Source of the DNA: an uncultured delta proteobacterium
GTDB taxonomy: Bacteria > Desulfobacterota > RBG-13-43-22
Direction: 5' to 3'
NCBI GenBank assembly: GCA_963790475.1
Contig: CAWBOS010000012.1
Coordinates: 1,344,001 to 1,408,000, forward strand
Length of the DNA: 64,000 nucleotides
In this document: piece by piece, positions 53,717 through 63,524 of the stretch
Position numbering within the stretch: position 1 is the stretch's first letter
How the letters are laid out: each line of letters starts with the position of its first letter
Translations under genes and position numbers: made by a program
Notes under the pieces: model-generated
Seen by the model: only the letters and a program-made list of their open reading frames with translations
The model's database searches: none
Told to the model about the DNA's origin: nothing

Positions 53717-55453
53717 ATGGAAAAAATTCTGAGAATCGATATGGGGGCGGAAGGCGGTCCAAAAATCAATGAAGTTCCGGTTGGGGATTATGCCGGATTG
53801 GGAGGCCGGGCCATGACCTCGACCATTGTAGCCAAGGAAGTGCCCCCGACCTGTCATCCCTTGGGGGCCGACAATAAATTGGTGATTGCCCCGGGTCTGT
53901 TAAGCGGGACTGCGGCAGCCATGTCCGGCAGGTTATCGATCGGATGCAAAAGCCCTTTGACCGGCGGCATCAAGGAAGCCAATTCCGGAGGCCAGCCCTC
54001 ACAGGTCCTGGCCCGCCTGGGCTATGCGGCCATCGTTCTTGAAGGAAAACCGAAGGACGAAACCTTGTATAAAGTTTTCATCAACAAGGATGGTGTAAAA
54101 ATTCAACCCGACAATAGTCTGAAGGGTCTCCCTAATTACGACCTGATTGAAAAAATGAAGACCCAATACGGGGATAAAATCGCCTGTATCTCCATCGGGC
54201 CGGCCGGTGAAATGAAGCTGGCCGCGGCTTCCATTGCCTGTACGGACATGGAACTGAGGCCAACCCGGCATGCCGGCCGCGGCGGGGTTGGTGCGGTCAT
54301 GGGTTCCAAAGGGGTAAAGGTAATCGTCCTGGACGATACCGGGAAGACCATGCGCTCTCCCAAGGATCCGGAAAAATTCAAAGAGGCCTCAAAAGCATGG
54401 GTCAAAGGATTACAGGGCCACCCGGTCACCGGCCAGGGTCTGCCGGCCTATGGAACGAATGTCTTGACCAATATCTTGAACGAAGCTGGCGCTTATCCGA
54501 CTTATAATTTCAAAGAAGGCCGATTTTCCGGTGCCGCCAAGATCAGCGGGGAAACCCAGGCCGAATTGGAGACCGCACGGGGAGGGCTGGCCACCCATGG
54601 CTGCCACCGGGGTTGCATCATTCGCTGCTCCGGCACCTATAATGACAAAGACGGCCATTTCCTGACCAAGCAGCCGGAATATGAAACAGTCTGGGCCCAC
54701 GGAGGGAATTGCGGCATCGATGACCTGGATGCCATTGCCCAAATGGATTTCCTGGATGATAATTATGGATTGGACACCATTGAGATGGGAGCCACCATCG
54801 GCGTGGCTATGGAGGCCGGCCTGTTAAAATTCGGTGACGCTCAAGGGGCCATTAATCTGATTAAGGAAGTGGGAAAGGGGACTCCTTTAGGCCGGATTTT
54901 AGGTAGCGGTGCGGCGGTGACCGGCAAGGTTTTTGGTGTTGAACGGATTCCGGTCGTCAAAGGCCAAGCCATGCCGGCCTATGACCCCCGGGCTGTCCAG
55001 GGCATCGGGGTGACCTATGCTACCAGTCCCATGGGGGCCGACCATACGGCCGGCTATGCCGTGGCCACCAATATTATGAATGTCGGCGGTCAGGTAGATC
55101 CTCTTAAACCAGCAGGGCAGATCGAGCTTTCCCGGAATCTGCAAATCGCCACGGCGGCCATCGATGCCGTCGGTATGTGTCTGTTCATTGCCTTTGCCGT
55201 TCTCGATCAGCCGGAGACCTTTCAGGCCCTGCTTGATATGATTAATGCCTTTTACGGTCTGAATCTGACGGGCGATGATGTGACCGCCCTGGGAAAATCA
55301 ATCCTTAAGAACGAAAGGGACTTTAATCTCCGGGCCGGTTTTACCGCCCAACAGGACCGTTTGCCGGACTTTTTCAAAAAAGAGCCGGTGGCACCACACA
55401 ATGTCACCTTCCAGGTTAAAGATGAGGAGTTGGATCAGGTTTTTAACTGGTAA
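53717..55453 (+). CDS. aor: Aldehyde:ferredoxin oxidoreductase (tungstopterin family)
   Basis: KSPLTGGIKEANSGG, GRGGVGAVMGSKG, CHRGCIIRC, EYET, DNYGLDTIE. Confidence 0.93.
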   Translation: MEKILRIDMGAEGGPKINEVPVGDYAGLGGRAMTSTIVAKEVPPTCHPLGADNKLVIAPGLLSGTAAAMSGRLSIGCKSPLTGGIKEANSGGQPSQVLARLGYAAIVLEGKPKDETLYKVFINKDGVKIQPDNSLKGLPNYDLIEKMKTQYGDKIACISIGPAGEMKLAAASIACTDMELRPTRHAGRGGVGAVMGSKGVKVIVLDDTGKTMRSPKDPEKFKEASKAWVKGLQGHPVTGQGLPAYGTNVLTNILNEAGAYPTYNFKEGRFSGAAKISGETQAELETARGGLATHGCHRGCIIRCSGTYNDKDGHFLTKQPEYETVWAHGGNCGIDDLDAIAQMDFLDDNYGLDTIEMGATIGVAMEAGLLKFGDAQGAINLIKEVGKGTPLGRILGSGAAVTGKVFGVERIPVVKGQAMPAYDPRAVQGIGVTYATSPMGADHTAGYAVATNIMNVGGQVDPLKPAGQIELSRNLQIATAAIDAVGMCLFIAFAVLDQPETFQALLDMINAFYGLNLTGDDVTALGKSILKNERDFNLRAGFTAQQDRLPDFFKKEPVAPHNVTFQVKDEELDQVFNW

Positions 55454-56146: not shown

Positions 56147-56536
56147 CTATGGTTCAATCACCGCACACCGGCCGCGATTTTTAGCTTTACGAACCAGTTT
56201 TTGGTCAAAGGTATAAAATGCCCGACAGCCCTGGGATACAGCCAAATGTAGGGCATCGGCAAAATCCATTCCCTCGGAATACCACTTTAAGGCTGTTCCC
56301 ATACGATTCGGACTGGAAAGGGTCACATTCGGCAGACCGCAGAGTTTTAGAAAGGCCTCATAAATGTCTGTCGGAGAGAAACCGTAGGCGTAACGAAGAA
56401 ACCATTCGGTTTCAAGAAAGACTGTTTCAGGAATGAGAAGGTGTTCCTTCTTGAATACCGACTCCGCTTTCGCGGCCTGCCCGGGATCATCATGGGTCAG
56501 GAGACGAACCAGGATATTGGTGTCAACGCCGGTCAC
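56147..56536 (-). CDS. vapC: PIN-domain toxin VapC
   Basis: VDTNILVR, LETEW, DFADALH, TFD. Confidence 0.9.
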   Translation of the reverse strand: MTGVDTNILVRLLTHDDPGQAAKAESVFKKEHLLIPETVFLETEWFLRYAYGFSPTDIYEAFLKLCGLPNVTLSSPNRMGTALKWYSEGMDFADALHLAVSQGCRAFYTFDQKLVRKAKNRGRCAVIEP

Positions 56537-56786
56537 GTTTTACGGCCCTTGCGCCTTTTTTAATGGCATCTTCCATCTCTTCAAGAGATTTAGCTTTTCC
56601 TGAATAGGGAAGGCAAGAGGCCACATCCCGGAGGGAGGTCTCCGGAAATGCCGATATCGGTTTGAGGAGAATGCCCTCATCGGTTTCGATGGTTTGAAGC
56701 TCCTGTCCCGGCTCCCAGCGCCGCCGCGTGCGTAATTCCTTGGGGATGATTACCTGGCCTTTGCTGGAAAGTCTTGTGATTTGCAT
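56523..56786 (-). CDS. AbrB/MazE-family antitoxin
   Basis: LSSKGQVIIPKELR; overlaps the toxin start. Confidence 0.9.
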   Translation of the reverse strand: MQITRLSSKGQVIIPKELRTRRRWEPGQELQTIETDEGILLKPISAFPETSLRDVASCLPYSGKAKSLEEMEDAIKKGARAVKRDRR

Positions 56787-57033: not shown

Positions 57034-57062
57034 TTGACACCCAATTAAAAATATTTTACTTA
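57034..57062 (+). promoter_or_regulatory. Sigma70 promoter
   Basis: TTGACA-17 nt-TACTTA immediately before the riboswitch. Confidence 0.6.
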
Positions 57063-57066
57063 TAAA

Positions 57067-57118
57067 CAGGGATGGAGTCCCCCCTGAAAATCGCCGAAGT
57101 CGAGCTAATGACTCCTAC
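57067..57118 (+). ncRNA. Fluoride riboswitch 1
   Basis: GGGATGGAGTCCCC..AATCGC..GCTAATGACTCCTAC, the crcB-motif consensus. Confidence 0.88.
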
Positions 57119-57161
57119 TGCGCAAATCATTGCAGCAGTGGGGCCATTAGGAGTATTGATG

Positions 57162-57190
57162 AACCCGCTGCCAAGCGGGTTTTTATTTTT
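57162..57190 (+). terminator. Leader terminator of riboswitch 1
   Basis: aacccgct-gcca-agcgggtt followed by T runs. Confidence 0.75.
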
Positions 57191-57249
57191 GGGGGAAGAA
57201 GGTCTTCTTTAAAACCCATTTTCTTCTAAAATATATTGGAGATTGTAGA

Positions 57250-58407
57250 ATGGAAGATCAAATTATATCTTTGGTCCTCTGGGCGCTCATCTTTGTTGCC
57301 GGTTTTTTTTCGGTTGAACTGGGCCTGTCGGTGGCCATCATTGAAATGTCTCTGGGTGTCATTGGTGGAAACTTTTTAGGGCTCCATCCCACCCCCTGGA
57401 TCACCTACCTGGCCGGATTCGGCGGCATCCTCTTGACCTTTCTGGCCGGGGCCGAGGTGGATACTCAGGTCATGAAAGCCAAATTCAAAGAAAGTTTTCT
57501 AATCGGGGCCGTATCCTTTCTGATCCCTTTTTTAGGGGCCATGTTCTATGCCCATTATCTCCTCGACTGGTCCTGGCCGGCCGCCGAAATCGCCGGGATT
57601 GCCCTTTCCACCACCTCCCTGGCCGTGGTCTATGCGGTCTTGGTGGAAACCGGCCTGACCAATACCGAAATGGGCAAGATCCTCATGGCCGCCACCTTTA
57701 TTACCGACTTGGGAACAACCTTGGCCCTCACCCTGCTTTTCTTGGAATTCAACTGGTTCACCCTACTCTTTCTGGGAGTCTCAGCCTTGCTCATCCTGAT
57801 TATTCCCAGAATCTATCCCTGGATTTGCCGGAGGTACGGCGACCGGGTGATCGAACCGGAGATTAAATTTCTTTTTCTCATCCTCGTTATTTTTATGTTT
57901 TTCGCCAAAATCGGGGCCAGTCATGCCATCCTGCCGGCCTTTGTCCTGGGTCTGGCCATGTCCAAAAATTTTATGAAGAACCGGACCCTTCAACACCGAC
58001 TCCGGGTTGTGGCCTTTGCCATCATCACCCCCTTTTTCTTTATCAACGGTGGAATGAACATCTCTTTAAAATTGCTTTTATTGAATTTGGGTCTGCTGGT
58101 CCAGATGTTTCTGGTCAAACAAGTGACCAAAATAGTAGGGGTCTATCCCTTGGCTAAAAAATATCTCCCTGAAAATGCCATGTACACGACCCTGTTGATG
58201 AGCACGGGTCTGACCATGGGGACCATCTCTTCAGTCTTTGGATTAACTGCCGGTATTATCAATCGGGCTCAGTTCTCCGTCTTGGTGGCCGTTGTCGTTT
58301 TGAGTGCCATCATCCCCACCTTCATCGCCCAGAAATGGTTTGAACCCAAATATGAATTACCCAACTTGAATGGTTTATCTGCAACCTCAGAAAATTTAGA
58401 AGAATAG
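57250..58407 (+). CDS. Cation:proton antiporter (CPA2-like)
   Basis: About 12 TM helices; LTFLAGAE, LSTTSLAVV, ATFITD, PFFF. Confidence 0.88.
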   Translation: MEDQIISLVLWALIFVAGFFSVELGLSVAIIEMSLGVIGGNFLGLHPTPWITYLAGFGGILLTFLAGAEVDTQVMKAKFKESFLIGAVSFLIPFLGAMFYAHYLLDWSWPAAEIAGIALSTTSLAVVYAVLVETGLTNTEMGKILMAATFITDLGTTLALTLLFLEFNWFTLLFLGVSALLILIIPRIYPWICRRYGDRVIEPEIKFLFLILVIFMFFAKIGASHAILPAFVLGLAMSKNFMKNRTLQHRLRVVAFAIITPFFFINGGMNISLKLLLLNLGLLVQMFLVKQVTKIVGVYPLAKKYLPENAMYTTLLMSTGLTMGTISSVFGLTAGIINRAQFSVLVAVVVLSAIIPTFIAQKWFEPKYELPNLNGLSATSENLEE

Positions 58408-58416
58408 GAGGTGTTT

Positions 58417-58857
58417 ATGTTTAAAAAATTACTGGTGGCTTATGATGGATCCGAGGATTCCAAAAAGGCCCTGGAGATTGCCCTGGAATTATCCAAAAAG
58501 TTTGGTTCGGAAGTCCATCTACTTACCATCATCGAACAGCTCCCTCATTATGCGGCTACCATCGGTGAGGTGAAAGAGGCCCTGGCTGAGATCACCAAGG
58601 AGATAGAAAAGGAGCAAACCCTGGTCTGTGAGGCCACCCGGGAACAGGGGATTGACATTAAATGCCGGATCCTGCCCGGACATGAAGTGGAGGCCATCAT
58701 CGCCTATGCCCAAAAGGGCAACTTTGATGCCTTGCTATTGGGGCGTAAAGGCCGGTCCGCCATCCTTCACACCAAAAGCGGCAGTACGGCCGTTCAAGTG
58801 TCCACCCATGCTCCCTGTACGGTCATCCTGGCCCAGGCTGAGAAGAAAAAGGAATGA
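58417..58857 (+). CDS. Universal stress protein
   Basis: LVAYDGS, LLGRKG, GSTA..HAPCTV. Confidence 0.9.
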   Translation: MFKKLLVAYDGSEDSKKALEIALELSKKFGSEVHLLTIIEQLPHYAATIGEVKEALAEITKEIEKEQTLVCEATREQGIDIKCRILPGHEVEAIIAYAQKGNFDALLLGRKGRSAILHTKSGSTAVQVSTHAPCTVILAQAEKKKE

Positions 58858-58914
58858 GTAATTGGAAAAATTCTCTTGACCGATGGCATTGTGATGAATA
58901 TTAGAATTTAATAA

Positions 58915-59018
58915 GGTGATGAAGTTCACCGGAACCGCTTTCTTTTAATTACCGATAGGTTTAAAGAAAGCTCATGACTTCTACTTCAAAATATATGGGG
59001 TAGAAGTTTTTTATTTTT
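58915..59018 (+). ncRNA. Fluoride riboswitch 2 with terminator
   Basis: GGTGATGAAGTTCACC..AACCGC..GCTCATGACTTCTAC; compensatory GAAG/CTTC pseudoknot; terminator acttctac..gtagaagt followed by T run. Confidence 0.85.
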
Positions 59019-59225
59019 AAGGCCTGTAGAATCTTAGATGAAAAGCGATGATTTGAACAAATTTCGCAAATAAGAAACCTTATGAGGATCAAAGGGCCAA
59101 AAGAAAATTCGGATTGGTTGAAATGCCATTAGGATAAGCGATAGGCTGCCCTGGATGTCCTATGATAAAAAGTGATTCCCGATCTCCTATTCTATTTATT
59201 AAATCAAAAAGAACAATCGCTTCCT

Positions 59226-59708
59226 ATGATCTATTATTGCCCCTTCTGCTGGTTTGAATCTTCAATGCCTTTTGAGACCTGCCCCCGCTGCCGGCAGGAT
59301 CTTACCAAATTAAAGGACATGGATTATGCGGAACGTCTGGCTCTGTCCTTGCGGCACCCCGAGCCGGAGACCCGTTATCGAGCCGCTCACATCCTTGGAT
59401 TATTGAAGGCCGTAAAAGCCATCCCCGCTTTAATTCAGGCGGCTCAAGAAACGGGGGACCTTTTTTTACTTCAGAAAATCGCTTGGGCCTTGGGAGAAAT
59501 GAAAGATCCCGCCTCCTTGGCGCAACTCATGAATTTTTTAAAACATCCTTCATTTATAATTCGTAAAGAAGCTGTTCAGGCCCTTAGCAAACTGGGTGGG
59601 AAACAAGCATTAGAGGCTATATCGACTTCCTGTTCCGACCCCATTGAATCGGTTAGAGAAGCCGCCAGAGAGATTATTAAAAGGATGCAGATAACCAAGA
59701 CAGAATAA
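59226..59708 (+). CDS. Zinc-ribbon + HEAT/PBS-lyase repeat protein
   Basis: YCPFCW..CPRC, then repeats RYRAAHILG, AWALG, RKEAVQAL, VREAA. Confidence 0.8.
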   Translation: MIYYCPFCWFESSMPFETCPRCRQDLTKLKDMDYAERLALSLRHPEPETRYRAAHILGLLKAVKAIPALIQAAQETGDLFLLQKIAWALGEMKDPASLAQLMNFLKHPSFIIRKEAVQALSKLGGKQALEAISTSCSDPIESVREAAREIIKRMQITKTE

Positions 59709-59947
59709 AGAAATACCCGTACGCATCGAAACAATGAATTTTCAACTATCGGAGAAAAGTCTCGCTATTTCAAGATCAGCATTCGTCCAGCTAATTATGG
59801 CAGATAAGATAACGGCAATTGAAATGGGCAATACAAAACACCGGAAAATATGTTTATTTCTTATTTCAGCCCCTTTGCCCATAACATTCCGAATTCCAAG
59901 ATATTTAAATTATTTTAAGTGAGACTCCCTGTCTAAAAATTCTTCTT

Positions 59948-60571
59948 TTATTCTTTTACTTTGCTTAAATTGAATTGGTACCGGTCAAAATAATATTTTA
60001 GGATCAGTGTACCTATTATTCCGATGCCTGCTCCGGCAATCACATCGCTCAAAAAATGCGCAGTTATAATTATCCTGCTTATACCAATAGCCCCAGCCAT
60101 GATAAATAGCGGTATTCCCCAACGGGGAAAAAGGATTGTCAATGCAGTGGCAAGTGAAAATGCGGTTTGAACGTGGCCGGAAGGAAAGGATGTTATTTCA
60201 TAAAGGTGACCAAAGTAATCAAATCCAAAACGACCGAGATTAAATAAATCAACAGGGCGATGACGTCCGGCTATCCATTTCAATAAAATGGTGAAGATTC
60301 CGGTAATACTAAGAGAAAGGAAAACAAAAAGAAATCGTGCCGCATAGAGATTATTTTTGTAAATAAAACGAAAAAATAAATATAAAATTAGACTGGCAAC
60401 AAAATACCAGGTTGCAATGCCAAAAGTCGTGATTACTTCGGCCCATTTTTTTATAGCAGGGCTTAACGTCAGACAATATTTCATTAGGGAAATATCCCAA
60501 AATAAATAAGAAATGACTGTCAATATTAAACAAGTTGCAAAGACCGGTGTTGCGATCCATCTTTTTTTCAT
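59948..60571 (-). CDS. PAP2-family membrane phosphatase
   Basis: KWIAGRHRP, SFPSGH, SRIIITAHFLSD. Confidence 0.9.
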   Translation of the reverse strand: MKKRWIATPVFATCLILTVISYLFWDISLMKYCLTLSPAIKKWAEVITTFGIATWYFVASLILYLFFRFIYKNNLYAARFLFVFLSLSITGIFTILLKWIAGRHRPVDLFNLGRFGFDYFGHLYEITSFPSGHVQTAFSLATALTILFPRWGIPLFIMAGAIGISRIIITAHFLSDVIAGAGIGIIGTLILKYYFDRYQFNLSKVKE

Positions 60572-60863
60572 GGTTTTACTCCCCGATAATCAATGTATTT
60601 CAAGATTTCGTTGCCGGATATTATTACGTGCATAAGAAGAATCATCATCTTTTGATGGTGTTGATGTAGCCTTTTCCCAGAGGCCAGCATTTATGCCCTC
60701 TCCTTGTGGGTGATCATTGGCTTTTTGATCTCAGCCACGGATCTGAAGATTCTCACGTATTGGTCACGGCCGGGCTTTCTGCCTTTTTATTTATTTTTTT
60801 GCGTGTAAGACAAGAAGTGCAAAGAAGAAAACCTTGATGGCCCGGGAAACCCTTTAACTCAAT

Positions 60864-61315
60864 TCATCCAACCTTTGATGGTTTTGCTTTGCGCAAACGT
60901 TTCGTGGTCTCCTCCAGCTGGCCCTTCTGTTTTAAGCGTGTCAACTCCTCAGGAGTTTCCTGAAACCCTTCCAGGGCGTTGAAAAACCGGTCCAGGGGAT
61001 CACCCTGAGAGGTGGGGACTAAAAAGATATGCGTGTGGGTATCCTTCGGCCCCGGGCATACATGCAGACAAAACCCGGTAGGAAGGTTTGCATGATTTTT
61101 CCGGCGACCACTTTGGCCACCCTGAAAAGGCTCTCTGTTTCTTCCACGGTGAGGTCATGCCACCAGGGGACATGTCTTTTGGGAATGATCAGGCAGTGGC
61201 CCTCGGCCAAAGGATTAATATCCAGTAAACCCAAAGACAGATCATCCTCATAGACGATATGGGCCGGCGCCTTCCTGGCAATGATATCACAAAAAACGCA
61301 CTTTTCTTCCGGCAT
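60864..61315 (-). CDS. HIT family hydrolase; -1 homopolymer frameshift near 61038
   Basis: CVFCDI, DINP..GHCLIIPKRH; adding one C restores IPHTHIFLVP and extends the ORF to 150 aa. Confidence 0.78.
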
Positions 61316-61344
61316 GACAAATCTCCATTAAAGATTAAAGGTTA

Positions 61345-61501
61345 GAGGTTCATGAAAAGTCGTCACCCCGGCGAAAGCCGGGGCCCAGGTGAATTATAAC
61401 TTACTTGAAAACACTGGATTCCGGCTGGAGTCTATCCCGCACTTGATGCGGGACCGGAATGACTTAATGTGGGTTTCGGCGACTTTTTACGAGTTCATCA
61501 A
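61345..61501. repeat. REP/MITE-like element
   Basis: gtcaccccggcgaaagccgggg..ccggaatgac with end gactttttacgagttcatca. Confidence 0.75.
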
Positions 61502-61569
61502 GGTCAACGGGCTCATTTCCACTTGTTTAACTGACGGGACCAATTACTTGGGGTATTTTTACTCCCATT

Positions 61570-63324
61570 TCAGGCAGATATTTTTTGCTGTATGTGAATC
61601 AGCTTTTCCTTGATTTCAGCCATTTTCTTTTCCTCTTCAACAAGAACGGCCCTTTGTTTCTCAACCGCCTCCTCGCCCTTCGATCTCTGACTCAGGCCTT
61701 TTTCTATGGCCTTTGATATCCCTTCCATGGTGGCCTCAATCCTTTGGAGCATCTCCCATCTGAAGGTAAGCTTACTCTTATCCAGTCTTTCTTCAAAGTC
61801 AGAACCAATTCTGGCGGACTGCCTGTCGATCACCCCCTGGAGGTATTCCTTCATCTTCTTCTGCATGATCTTTTCGCCGATGAACTTCGGCCGCAACAAG
61901 GTCAGCGACGAGGCCACTATCTCAATCCCTCCCGGCTGCTCCTTGAATTTATAGTAAAACCTGGACTTCGATGACCAAATGGCCTCGGCCTTAACGATAT
62001 CGACGGGAACGGCGAAGAGTTCCGCCGAGAAATTAAGGAGGGCGTCCACGGTTTCATCGATCTTGCTAATAAATCTCTTGCAGGACGTCTCAAATGCTTT
62101 TGACAGTTTCTCATCCTCAAGGCCGCGCCAGGCCATAAAGGCCTGTTTGACTTCGACGACAATTTGCTCTTCAAGACGCCGCTGAATCTCCTTCAGGGAC
62201 AGGCCCGAATACTCTTTGTAGCGGCTTTCAATGTTTCCTGACACTTTAAAAAGCAACTCCTGTCTGAAGGCCTTCGTGTCTTCATCCAGGACGTTCTTTA
62301 TAATATTTTTCGTGGCGCCATCCAGCAGCAGGTAGAAGTCATCTTTTTCAACCAAAATCTCTTCCTTTTTATTCTCGAAAATTTTGATCTTCTCTTGCAG
62401 CTCCTCTAAAGGCGTTGCTAGTGATTTCATCTCCAGTTCAAGTTTGAACAAGGCTTGAGAGAGGAGCCGAAGGAGGTTGTTGGTCACGGAAAGGAGCAGA
62501 ACTTTGCCCTTTTCCTGCATTAGAAAGGTATTCAGGATATGTTCAAATTCGGGGAGAAAACTTTTCTCCAGGAATTCCTTTGTTCCGGACAATTTACCCT
62601 GAAGGGCCCATTTGGCCGAAATGGGGAAAATCTTGACTTCGCTGCCCAACGACTCCTCAATAATGGTCCTGGAGAATGAAATGGATTCGTTAAGGTCTTC
62701 GGGACCGACATAATCGGCCTTATTCTGCAGAAAGAATATCCGGTTGGAATATTCTTTTACATCCTTTAAAAAATTAAGCTCGGCCTTGCTGACCGGCTGA
62801 TCGACGGAGAGAAGAAACAGGGCGGCATCCGACTTAGGTAAGTACTGATAAGCCACATCGGTGTTGTGCTCATATACCGAACCGACACCGGGGGTGTCGA
62901 TCAACCGGACCCCGTCTTTTAGATAGGTTGAAGGATAGGCTATGACGACTTCCTGCACCTCTTTTTCATTTTTTGGATTTCCTTTTTCGGTTACATATTG
63001 GGGGAGACTTGCCGGTTCAATCTCAGTCACCCGGCCGTCATTGAAATAAACATTGATATTTACGGTTTCGCCGTATTTAAGAATCGTGGCAATAGAGGTA
63101 AGAGGCACGATAGCTGTGGGCAATATTTCCGCCCCAAGGAGGGCATTGATCAGGCTGGTCTTCCCTCTTTTAAACTGTCCCAGAACAACCAGGTTAAAGA
63201 CATTATTTTGAATTTTATCCCTGAATTCTTCATAGAGGCCATTGGTATTCATTTCGATGGTTCCCATGGAGTCGATGCAGGTTACGAGTTCTTCTTTAAG
63301 ATGCGCGTAGTTATCGAGAACCAT
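61570..63324 (-). CDS. Bacterial dynamin-like GTPase
   Basis: G1 GQFKRGKT, G2 PLT, G3 DTPG, G4 NKAD, long helical C-terminus; RBS GGAGG. Confidence 0.9.
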   Translation of the reverse strand: MVLDNYAHLKEELVTCIDSMGTIEMNTNGLYEEFRDKIQNNVFNLVVLGQFKRGKTSLINALLGAEILPTAIVPLTSIATILKYGETVNINVYFNDGRVTEIEPASLPQYVTEKGNPKNEKEVQEVVIAYPSTYLKDGVRLIDTPGVGSVYEHNTDVAYQYLPKSDAALFLLSVDQPVSKAELNFLKDVKEYSNRIFFLQNKADYVGPEDLNESISFSRTIIEESLGSEVKIFPISAKWALQGKLSGTKEFLEKSFLPEFEHILNTFLMQEKGKVLLLSVTNNLLRLLSQALFKLELEMKSLATPLEELQEKIKIFENKKEEILVEKDDFYLLLDGATKNIIKNVLDEDTKAFRQELLFKVSGNIESRYKEYSGLSLKEIQRRLEEQIVVEVKQAFMAWRGLEDEKLSKAFETSCKRFISKIDETVDALLNFSAELFAVPVDIVKAEAIWSSKSRFYYKFKEQPGGIEIVASSLTLLRPKFIGEKIMQKKMKEYLQGVIDRQSARIGSDFEERLDKSKLTFRWEMLQRIEATMEGISKAIEKGLSQRSKGEEAVEKQRAVLVEEEKKMAEIKEKLIHIQQKISA

Positions 63325-63374
63325 ATATGGACCTCCTATCACTTTCTATTGGCAGGGGTCGTTTTGTTTGTACA

Positions 63375-63459
63375 AAAAATAAAAAACTCCTACCAAAGGC
63401 TTCTTTGGTAGGAGTCATTAGTCCCGGTTTATCGAGACGGTTGAGCGAACTCCATCGCT
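63375..63459 (-). ncRNA. Fluoride riboswitch 3 with terminator
   Basis: Minus strand AGCGATGGAGTTCGCT-CAACCG..ACTAATGACTCCTAC; terminator actcctaccaaag..ctttggtaggagt followed by T run. Confidence 0.9.
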
Positions 63460-63495
63460 TGATTAAAATCTATTTTACCCTATTTAGGTAGAATG

Positions 63496-63524
63496 AGTAT
63501 AAAATAAGACCGATGTGGGGTCAA
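63496..63524 (-). promoter_or_regulatory. Sigma70 promoter
   Basis: TTGACC-17 nt-TATACT upstream of riboswitch 3. Confidence 0.65.

Follow-up and report, generated by a model that had tools for sequence, protein, structure and literature searches.

The fluoride riboswitch class and its ties to antiporters, universal stress proteins (Usp) and enolase are already known. Two sources are drawn on here, PMC5533749 and PMC11139923. The former describes the E. cloacae FRM operon ppaC-uspA-eno-gpmA-crcB, with uspA up 120-fold and eno up 176-fold under fluoride. In the latter, Na+/H+ antiporters are the next commonest riboswitch-associated class after the exporters and are treated as pH homeostasis genes, enolase is often under fluoride-riboswitch control, and only about 30% of the CLC-F exporter genes are controlled by the riboswitch. 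The locus considered here is a 6.5-kb island within a 64-kb stretch of DNA (the window; 64,000 nucleotides of contig CAWBOS010000012.1, here C12) from the genome of an uncultured delta proteobacterium of the Desulfobacterota lineage RBG-13-43-22 (genome G000). It shares with the E. cloacae FRM operon the aptamer class, the terminator-based ON design, and Usp, enolase and ion transporters as the functions induced. Unlike regulons of that type, it has no exporter behind any of its four switches and no crcB in the genome, and it adds a dynamin, a Zn-ribbon/HEAT protein and, in relatives, a P-loop ATPase. The locus is probably a genuine fluoride regulon island, in which three transcriptional ON riboswitches fall inside the window and a fourth lies 10 kb beyond it.

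An Rfam 15 covariance scan of the whole window at gathering thresholds gave exactly three matches, all to the fluoride riboswitch family RF01734 (gathering score 34 bits). The original prediction, made from the sequence, had placed three crcB-motif aptamers here, and all three are recovered above the threshold. The aptamers and the signals of their leaders are listed below.

57059 to 57124, plus strand: fluoride aptamer copy 1 (RF01734, 34.5 bits against the threshold of 34), the weakest copy.
57105 to 57190, plus strand: expression platform of copy 1, a hairpin sequestering the aptamer 3' strand, then a separate terminator at 57161 to 57182 and a T-run (fold z = -4.5).
58906 to 58990, plus strand: fluoride aptamer copy 2 (RF01734, 45.4 bits), with a 22-nt insert within the P3 loop and a compensatory change of one pseudoknot pair from G-C to A-U.
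58976 to 59018, plus strand: intrinsic terminator of copy 2, a 13-pair stem (58976 to 59008) followed by TTTTTATTTTT, overlapping the aptamer 3' strand (fold z = -5.4).
63402 to 63468, minus strand: fluoride aptamer copy 3 (RF01734, 46.1 bits).
63375 to 63416, minus strand: intrinsic terminator of copy 3, a 14-pair stem (63416 to 63385) followed by TTTTTATTTTT, overlapping the aptamer 3' strand (fold z = -6.4).
63496 to 63524, minus strand: promoter-like site in the dynamin leader, TTGACC, 17 nt, TATACT (10 of 12 consensus positions, the best in the region; a consensus match only).

The aptamer structure is conserved across an alignment of 45 aptamers covering P1, P3 and the pseudoknot, in which pairing holds in 98.4% of 571 cells. 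With the register slid it is never above 58.1%, and none of 500 shuffles matched the observed pairing. Changes on both sides of a pair are seen in 7 of the 13 pairs. The pseudoknot strands of copy 2 are GAUGAAGU...ACUUCUAC, against GAUGGAGU...ACUCCUAC in copies 1 and 3, and the pair that differs is G-C in 39 of the 45 aptamers, A-U in 6 and unpaired in none. The compensatory change first noticed in copy 2 is genuine. An ortholog of copy 2 in a related genome (G003) carries the identical G-C to A-U change, and in the window the 3' arm of the copy 2 terminator (GUAGAAGU) is altered in step with the pseudoknot.

A hairpin with a T-run is present at the 3' end of all three aptamers, so that the terminator proposed for each leader is found. 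Terminator-like sites are at background in the region as a whole, with 11 seen against 10.3 expected from shuffles. The three leader terminators, with 14, 13 and 9 stem pairs, are among the top four of the sites listed, one other site also having 9, and they are placed exactly at the aptamer 3' ends. In copies 2 and 3 the aptamer strand GACU(C/U)CUAC is reused in the terminator stem. Copy 1 has a three-hairpin design, and its predicted fold shows the 3'-strand hairpin and the separate terminator. When the aptamer 3' strand is omitted from the fold, GCAGUGGG pairs with the 5' arm of the terminator, CCCGCUGC, forming an antiterminator. Without fluoride, the aptamer 3' strand would enter the terminator in copies 2 and 3, and in copies 1 and 4 it would be held in a hairpin so that the separate terminator can form. 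From the riboswitch class we infer both a response to fluoride and ON logic: with the ligand bound, the pseudoknot would hold the 3' strand and transcription would read through.

The gene families expected behind the switches, an Na_H_Exchanger of 385 amino acids (aa) with a Usp, a CPxC...CPxC Zn-ribbon protein with HEAT_2 and a Dynamin_N protein, are all present as claimed. None of the island proteins passes a curated NCBIfam model.

57250 to 58407, plus strand: CPA2-type cation/proton antiporter, 385 aa (Pfam Na_H_Exchanger PF00999, E 4e-37, 128.3 bits against a cut-off of 26.2).
58411 to 58857, plus strand: Usp (Pfam Usp PF00582, E 8e-29, 101.4 bits), starting 4 to 10 nt past the antiporter stop.
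59226 to 59708, plus strand: Zn-ribbon (CPFC...CPRC) and HEAT-repeat protein, 160 aa from the ATG shared with its orthologs (HEAT_2, E 8e-24).
61570 to 63324, minus strand: bacterial dynamin-like GTPase, 584 aa (Dynamin_N PF00350, E 1e-28, 100.5 bits against a cut-off of 27).
61019 to 61315, minus strand: HIT-family gene downstream of the dynamin gene (HIT, E 3.5e-16, profile positions 3 to 73 only), with a frameshift near codon 93.

The association of these genes with the riboswitch recurs in other genomes, and most consistently for the dynamin, a point that the original prediction overlooked along with the fourth switch and its enolase. Relatives of the dynamin at 55–94% identity were found at 25 genome loci, two of them without upstream sequence. 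A fluoride aptamer is present upstream, on the strand of the dynamin, in all 23 that could be evaluated: 18 have it within 200 nt, 4 at the operon head and 1 on the far side of an insertion sequence (IS) element. Twenty-one of the genome loci lie outside the family, at 55–78% identity, nearly all of them in metagenome-assembled genomes (MAGs) of Nitrospirota/Thermodesulfovibrionales. In 18 outside loci Rfam identifies 26 fluoride aptamers, with a same-strand upstream aptamer in 18 of 18 (14 direct and 4 at the operon head). The operon-head cases, in 4 outside loci, are a CPA2-Usp(-crcB-DUF190)-dynamin operon. Among three large outside loci, an aptamer lies 70 nt upstream in one and two are truncated at the dynamin gene.

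A covariance model built from the 45 aptamers was applied to 80 metagenome loci with dynamin relatives at 49–86% identity, of which 8 have less than 150 nt of upstream sequence, leaving 72 evaluable. Read as the frequency with which a dynamin relative has a switch, the aptamer is found in 64 of the 72 (within 250 nt in 59, and only at 1.3–2 kb upstream in 5) and in none of the remaining 8. Of the 92 metagenome aptamers, 59 are followed first by the dynamin, 20 by CPA2, 1 by CrcB and 12 by some other gene. Genes and switches are typically arranged as switch-CPA2-Usp-switch-dynamin, with an MFS gene, a small HAD-like protein, enolase or the Zn-ribbon/HEAT gene next. Beyond its core the module can carry MFS, HAD-like, enolase, Zn-ribbon/HEAT or P-loop ATPase genes. 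That the same gene families are placed behind this riboswitch both in relatives and in a second phylum supports the coordinated fluoride-response module that was first proposed. The conserved module is widespread in Nitrospirota MAGs and sediment metagenomes, and the island is its local form, without crcB.

The recurrence of the aptamer also bears on another reading of the dynamin, as part of a Leo-type system of anti-phage defence that stands behind a riboswitch by chance. PADLOC does match the protein to LeoA (E 1.2e-17) and LeoBC (E 1.3e-14), though these matches are weak and reflect generic dynamin similarity. The gene is a single dynamin gene with no LeoBC partner in the genome, the upstream aptamer is kept across the genome and metagenome loci counted above, and the neighbouring genes belong to fluoride response rather than defence. 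A role in defence is hardly credible on this evidence.

Several further genes of the module were seen in the metagenome loci. A P-loop (STAND-like) ATPase of about 257 aa, with its own fluoride riboswitch, is found directly after the dynamin in 7 metagenome loci. Copies were recorded at L068 2759-3532, L078, L079, L102, L066, L087 and L086, and at L045 5747-6535. The protein has weak ATPase_2/nSTAND6 matches and no NCBIfam match, and in some loci it is ahead of the Zn-ribbon/HEAT gene. Two metagenome loci have, behind a fluoride riboswitch, a gene for a 147-aa protein that matches nothing in Pfam or NCBIfam, and the single copy run against PADLOC gave no match there either; the recorded positions of this protein are L070 2090-2533, L081 4876-5319 and L046 6211-6654. 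For neither the P-loop ATPase nor the 147-aa protein did tblastn yield a homologue, either in this genome or among the family loci. Islands often include a 156-aa HAD-like protein that is similar to the P-domain of P-type ATPases, as at L045 6912-7382 and in many metagenome loci. The copy in this genome (66% identical) is at G000:C12:947908-948375, away from the island and without a riboswitch. This protein brings to mind orf5249, a small 'divalent cation transporting ATPase' gene of the E. cloacae FRM fluoride operon (PMC5533749).

The dynamin gene of the window is preceded by an AGGAGG ribosome-binding site. In the protein the P-loop GQFKRGKT, the DTPG motif and the KAD motif are invariant in 18 orthologs. 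The structure model (predicted local distance difference test score, pLDDT, 68.2; predicted TM-score, pTM, 0.60) shows a GTPase domain and a long helical bundle, with residues 443–482 of the stalk tip unmodelled (pLDDT <50), though these hold the invariant W450, F456, F460 and P464. The best full-length Foldseek matches are BDLP of Nostoc (2j69; E 5.8e-16, TM 0.63) and IniA of Mycobacterium (6j72/6j73; TM 0.63–0.68). The window dynamin resembles these in its GTPase domain and long helical stalk, and IniA in size. It differs in being only 16–18% identical in sequence, in passing no NCBIfam model, and in its place under a fluoride riboswitch, which predicts a defined chemical inducer. IniA is a stress-induced membrane-remodelling protein, and to our knowledge no bacterial dynamin has a defined chemical inducer. 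Public clusters of the protein number more than 120 at 64% identity or above and bear generic names only. The function that we infer for this BDLP/IniA-like dynamin is most likely the remodelling or repair of membrane under fluoride stress.

Metal-fluoride complexes trap GTPases with GDP, and the G domains of the dynamin family are trapped by GDP and AlF4-. The island dynamin might in this light serve as an additional, or buffering, copy of a GTPase sensitive to fluoride, made in excess in the way that enolase is, and have no part in membrane repair. The raising of fluoride-inhibited enzymes is documented for enolase and pyrophosphatase (PMC5533749, PMC11139923), and the G motifs here are intact. 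Set against this, the genome holds no other dynamin that could be backed up, no paralogue being found at E <1e-4, and the helical stalk and the conserved aromatic tip are kept across the orthologs (55–94% identity), which argues for selection on the full mechanochemical protein. A buffering function is for these reasons very improbable, and membrane remodelling or repair is the preferred reading.

The antiporter is related to NapA and the CPA2 family through its Na_H_Exchanger fold. Its nearest solved structure is NapA 5bz3 (E 5.5e-9), in an alignment that spans residues 15–359, and on the NCBIfam CPA2 model TIGR00932 it scores 105.8 bits and does not reach the cut-off of 238.3. The I-D-D of NapA aligns with I-T-D in the window protein. 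Among 36 riboswitch-linked CPA2 relatives the motif is TD in 26, ND in 10 and DD in none. Paired Asp-Asp is the motif of electrogenic CPA2 proteins and N-D that of electroneutral exchangers. The second Asp, D153, and K294 are invariant in the riboswitch-linked clade and align with the cation-site positions of NapA, whose Asp and Lys we take to be ion-site residues. The island protein thus keeps Asp and Lys at the aligned ion-site positions and differs from NapA/CPA2 antiporters in having T/N-D for D-D, in its sub-cut-off score, and in always occurring with a separate Usp gene and without a KTN domain. On these presumed roles of the NapA residues, the conserved carboxylate would fit cation/proton exchange and not anion export.

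The CPA2-Usp pairing is kept in most loci. In the Usp, residues G109, G112, G122 and S123 are invariant across 15 sequences, in agreement with the spacing G-2x-G-9x-G(S/T), the motif of the ATP-binding type of Usp. A contact between CPA2 and Usp is predicted with weak support, at a score of 0.38 (best of 3 controls 0.00). Among solved complexes 58 of 80 score this high or higher, against 2 of 110 mismatched pairs, and of those that do, 7 of the solved complexes and both mismatches score 0.60 or less. The runs agree in at least 84% of the contacts, and the partner pLDDT is at least 75. No fused CPA2 proteins of 675–2000 aa were found, a range that does not include the size of a CPA2-Usp fusion (about 540 aa). 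The CPA2 antiporter and Usp would most likely correct the acidification and cation imbalance that follow HF influx.

The crcB gene, with DUF190, is found within the 3-kb flanks of 9 loci. CPA2-Usp shares an operon with crcB-DUF190 in L048, L097, L115 and L116 and lies beside it in L091, L098 and L107, and some Nitrospirota island copies hold crcB-DUF190 in the same operon. Where the two are co-operonic, CPA2-Usp is therefore not a substitute for Fluc and is not redundant. The original prediction had offered two roles for the antiporter. The first, fluoride export, is not supported, given the retained cation-site Asp and Lys and the operons shared with crcB-DUF190. The second, the offsetting of acidification, agrees with the literature reading of riboswitch-linked antiporters (PMC11139923). 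The retention of the cation-site Asp and the co-occurrence with CrcB favour a role in pH or cation homeostasis over one in fluoride export.

There is no CrcB or CLC gene within the island. CrcB/Fluc (PF02537) has no match in the genome (completeness 100%, contamination 9.68%) by a search that was positive in 11 of 14 named genomes, and tblastn with Nitrospirota CrcB and DUF190 also gave no match. The claim that no recognised exporter accompanies the switches holds with one qualification, a single CLC on contig C10 (L001 1231-2679). Among solved structures this protein is nearest to CLC-F, with 141 bits to 6d0j against 61 to ClcA. The CLC-F signatures are GNNLI/GMGLI, GREGT/V and GEVTP (PMC11139923). 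At these places the C10 protein has GHGTEKV, GKEGP and GGIVTP, that is none of the three, with Ile replacing the Glu of GEVTP. It differs from the CLC-F antiporters also in its lack of a riboswitch, as no aptamer lies near it and all four aptamer matches of the genome are on C12.

The related genomes were compared in the same way, in a family set of 21 genomes that are kin to each other, so that the counts are descriptive only. CrcB is present in 1 of the 21 (G015), directly behind its sole riboswitch and followed by DUF190. A CLC is present in 10 of the 21, and GREG[TV] or GEVTP occurs in 0 of the 16 CLC reading frames examined. Five riboswitch-bearing family genomes have neither CrcB nor CLC (G009, G011, G019, G020 and G006; completeness 93–100%), and in four of these the sole riboswitch precedes a CPA2 gene. 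Likewise, 2 of the 5 island-bearing Nitrospirota genomes (G022 and G023) have neither. A short CLC subtype of 450–486 aa with GHGTEKV, GKEGP and GGIVTP recurs in crcB-less genomes of two phyla, including Nitrospirota L162, L163 and L165. It is found in the crcB-less, island-bearing Nitrospirota genomes G021 and G025 and in 8 of the 21 family genomes, including G000, G003, G004, G005, G010, G014 and G015. The signature-less CLC, the CPA2 antiporter and an MFS transporter are candidates for the exporter in these genomes.

The C10 CLC could be a constitutive exporter that has gone unrecognised, the island then supplying accessory stress functions only. Its similarity to CLC-F 6d0j, the presence of the subtype in crcB-less island-bearing Nitrospirota and in the family, and the fact that riboswitch control is the minority state for CLC-F genes (PMC11139923) are consistent with this. 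Its lack of every CLC-F signature, the Ile in place of Glu, the missing aptamer, and the absence of the subtype from the five riboswitch-bearing family genomes and the two island-bearing Nitrospirota genomes named above are not. It is unlikely, if still worth consideration, that this CLC is the exporter.

Alternatively, the CPA2 antiporter could stand in for Fluc/CLC-F in this lineage, either by exporting F- or HF itself or by coupling their exit to H+ or K+. The distribution just described, with riboswitch-bearing genomes of two phyla that have neither CrcB nor CLC and, in four of five family cases, a sole switch that precedes CPA2, points in this direction. A CPA-type gene follows the switch in 11 of the 13 riboswitch-bearing family genomes, and the one genome with a crcB switch, G015, is without the CPA2 of the island clade. 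The unusual T/N-D motif in place of DD can be read in the same way. The invariant D153 and K294 nonetheless suit cation/proton exchange, at positions whose roles are assumed from NapA, and CPA2-Usp is co-operonic with or beside crcB-DUF190 and hence non-redundant there. Antiporters behind the riboswitch are read as pH homeostasis genes in PMC11139923. An exporter could also be hidden by MAG incompleteness, the family genomes being 93–100% complete and the figure for G022 and G023 not being known. Export by the antiporter is altogether decidedly improbable, and homeostasis of pH or cations is preferred for it.

A broader proposal is that the dynamin, the T/N-D CPA2 and Usp together form an exporter-independent fluoride tolerance system, or that one of them moves fluoride. 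In the exporter-independent version, genomes without Fluc and CLC-F would survive through cation/proton exchange and GTP-driven membrane remodelling. This is a tentative proposal, and on balance a doubtful one.

The genome-wide matches to RF01734 number four, all on C12, and the four switches span 17 kb. The fourth aptamer (49.5 bits) is at G000:C12:1417987-1418051 on the minus strand, 10 kb past the end of the window. Behind it come, in this order, a 48-aa stub of a second CPA2 paralogue, a C-terminal ChrB_N remnant, an intact enolase and OEP/AcrB RND efflux genes. The leader of this switch (L006 9731-10051 = G000:C12:1417731-1418051, minus strand) resembles a deletion scar. The enolase is 80.6% identical to the other enolase copy of the genome, and this second enolase, outside the window, would replace the fluoride-inhibited enzyme. 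An extra enolase copy behind a fluoride switch is an already known pattern (PMC5533749, PMC11139923).

Within the family, RF01734 is present in 13 of the 21 genomes, and G014, G003, G018 and G005 hold 2–3 copies each. The CPA2 clade is found in 11 of the 21, all of them riboswitch-bearing, and in 0 of the 8 riboswitch-free genomes. A switch precedes CPA2-Usp in G020, G010, G004 and G003 (broken in G003), a second CPA2 type in G011, G009, G019, G014 and G018 (broken in G018), and the Zn-ribbon/HEAT gene in G003. Dynamin-HIT follows a switch in G003, G014 (split), G005 (split), G018 (IS element between) and G006 (remnant), and the second switch of G005 precedes a third Na_H_Exchanger. G014 (L025 6964-7169, G014:C12) has two complete fluoride riboswitches, 77 nt apart, upstream of a single CPA2 gene, the first of which is of the copy 2 type (GAAG/CUUC) and has its own terminator-like hairpin. 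G018 retains only a 5' fragment of a copy-2-type aptamer, joined to the next aptamer. In the same genome (L040 2740-3952, G018:C95) an opposite-strand transposase gene lies between riboswitch and dynamin and clips the first codons of the dynamin.

In the HIT gene of the window the frame is lost in a short C-run before ...IPHTH..., so that it ends at 98 aa, where relatives have 144–153 aa and ...IPHTH(L/I)F.... A homopolymer sequencing error is a possible cause. A second broken HIT copy was seen at G000:C12:1185438-1185909.

A number of observations weigh against a functional island. Copy 1 exceeds the Rfam threshold by only 0.5 bit, its P1 has an A.C mismatch and its P3 no more than two Watson-Crick pairs, and its counterparts upstream of CPA2 genes score higher (G014 47.6, G003 46.7 and G018 44.1 bits), so the switch of the antiporter may be impaired. 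G005 and G014 have a split dynamin gene, G006 and G012 only fragments of it, and in G018 an IS element stands between the gene and its switch. CPA2 is broken in G003 and G018, the HIT gene of the window is frameshifted, and the fourth leader contains debris. Such breakage could come from relaxed selection or from homopolymer errors in long reads. Confidence in the dynamin model is moderate, and the presumed membrane-binding tip of the protein is unmodelled. The loci were selected by dynamin similarity, so that the counts show how often the dynamin has a switch and not the reverse. Several of the metagenome loci are near-duplicates, and the counts overstate the number of independent cases. Of the eight dynamin relatives without a switch, six are long-branch sequences at 49–51% identity.

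Some of these observations would also be explained if the island were a decaying relic of horizontal transfer, in which some switches, chiefly copy 1, regulate nothing useful. The low score and mismatches of copy 1, the gene debris behind switch 4, the frameshifted HIT gene and the dynamin and CPA2 genes broken in five relatives are compatible with decay, as is the place of the family dynamins among Nitrospirota-labelled sequences. However, the CPA2, Usp, Zn-ribbon/HEAT and dynamin genes are intact in the window. Promoter-like boxes, aptamers and terminators are all retained in the leaders, the changes in three strands of copy 2 match one another, and the base composition of the island does not stand out from its surroundings. 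A relic is considered unlikely, and a working fluoride regulon remains the preferred reading.

Transfer as such is suggested by dynamin identities across phyla of up to 78–81%, taken together with the nesting of the family clade among Nitrospirota-labelled rows of the dynamin tree. The tree is midpoint-rooted, with 13 of 106 rows dropped (match <540 aa or internal stops), and it does not give a direction. The module has probably been exchanged between phyla.

The Zn-ribbon/HEAT gene has a leader of 208 nt. Its Nitrospirota counterpart combines Zn_Ribbon_1 and HEAT_2, and in the metagenome loci it is found after the dynamin in 6 and after a riboswitch in 1. The protein falls in generic HEAT-repeat clusters only in the protein atlas, and it is probably an adaptor. 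The gap between riboswitch 2 and this gene is 114 nt in the window (59112-59225) against 987 nt in G003 (L027, G003:C14), where it encodes a 293-aa prenyltransferase-like (alpha-alpha toroid) gene. A PAP2 gene (59948-60571, minus strand) was considered as an island member and rejected, there being no match in 14 family loci or 80 metagenome loci. A PIN-domain gene (129 aa; 56147-56786, minus strand) lies just outside the upstream end of the island and is overlapped by an 87-aa upstream open reading frame, and the two resemble a VapBC-type toxin-antitoxin pair. The pair adjoins an aldehyde:ferredoxin oxidoreductase gene (53717-55453). In public sequencing runs the region was found in four DNA metagenome runs (best 0.49 of sampled words), and no RNA run was listed.

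No link between a dynamin and the fluoride riboswitch was found in the literature searched, judged in part from titles and the openings of abstracts, which does not extend to the gene tables of Baker et al. 2012 and Stockbridge et al. 2012, where a dynamin entry is possible. The Zn-ribbon/HEAT protein and the P-loop ATPase were likewise not found as partners of the riboswitch in that literature, the founding paper being outside its coverage, and no report of a fluoride riboswitch in Nitrospirota was found in it.

At least five family genomes and two Nitrospirota genomes keep riboswitch sensors and have no recognisable exporter, which calls into question Fluc/CLC-F as an obligatory first line of defence. 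They point to alternative fluoride systems, among which the CPA2-Usp pair, the MFS transporter and the CLC without CLC-F signatures can be named. The Zn-ribbon/HEAT protein, the 257-aa P-loop ATPase and the 147-aa protein without a Pfam or NCBIfam match are further families of the fluoride regulon. The roles of bacterial dynamins are largely open, and here a subfamily stands behind a riboswitch of known ligand in more than 80 loci from at least two phyla. This linkage provides a concrete inducer and a phenotype to test. If it is true, bacterial dynamins would have in fluoride their first defined chemical inducer.

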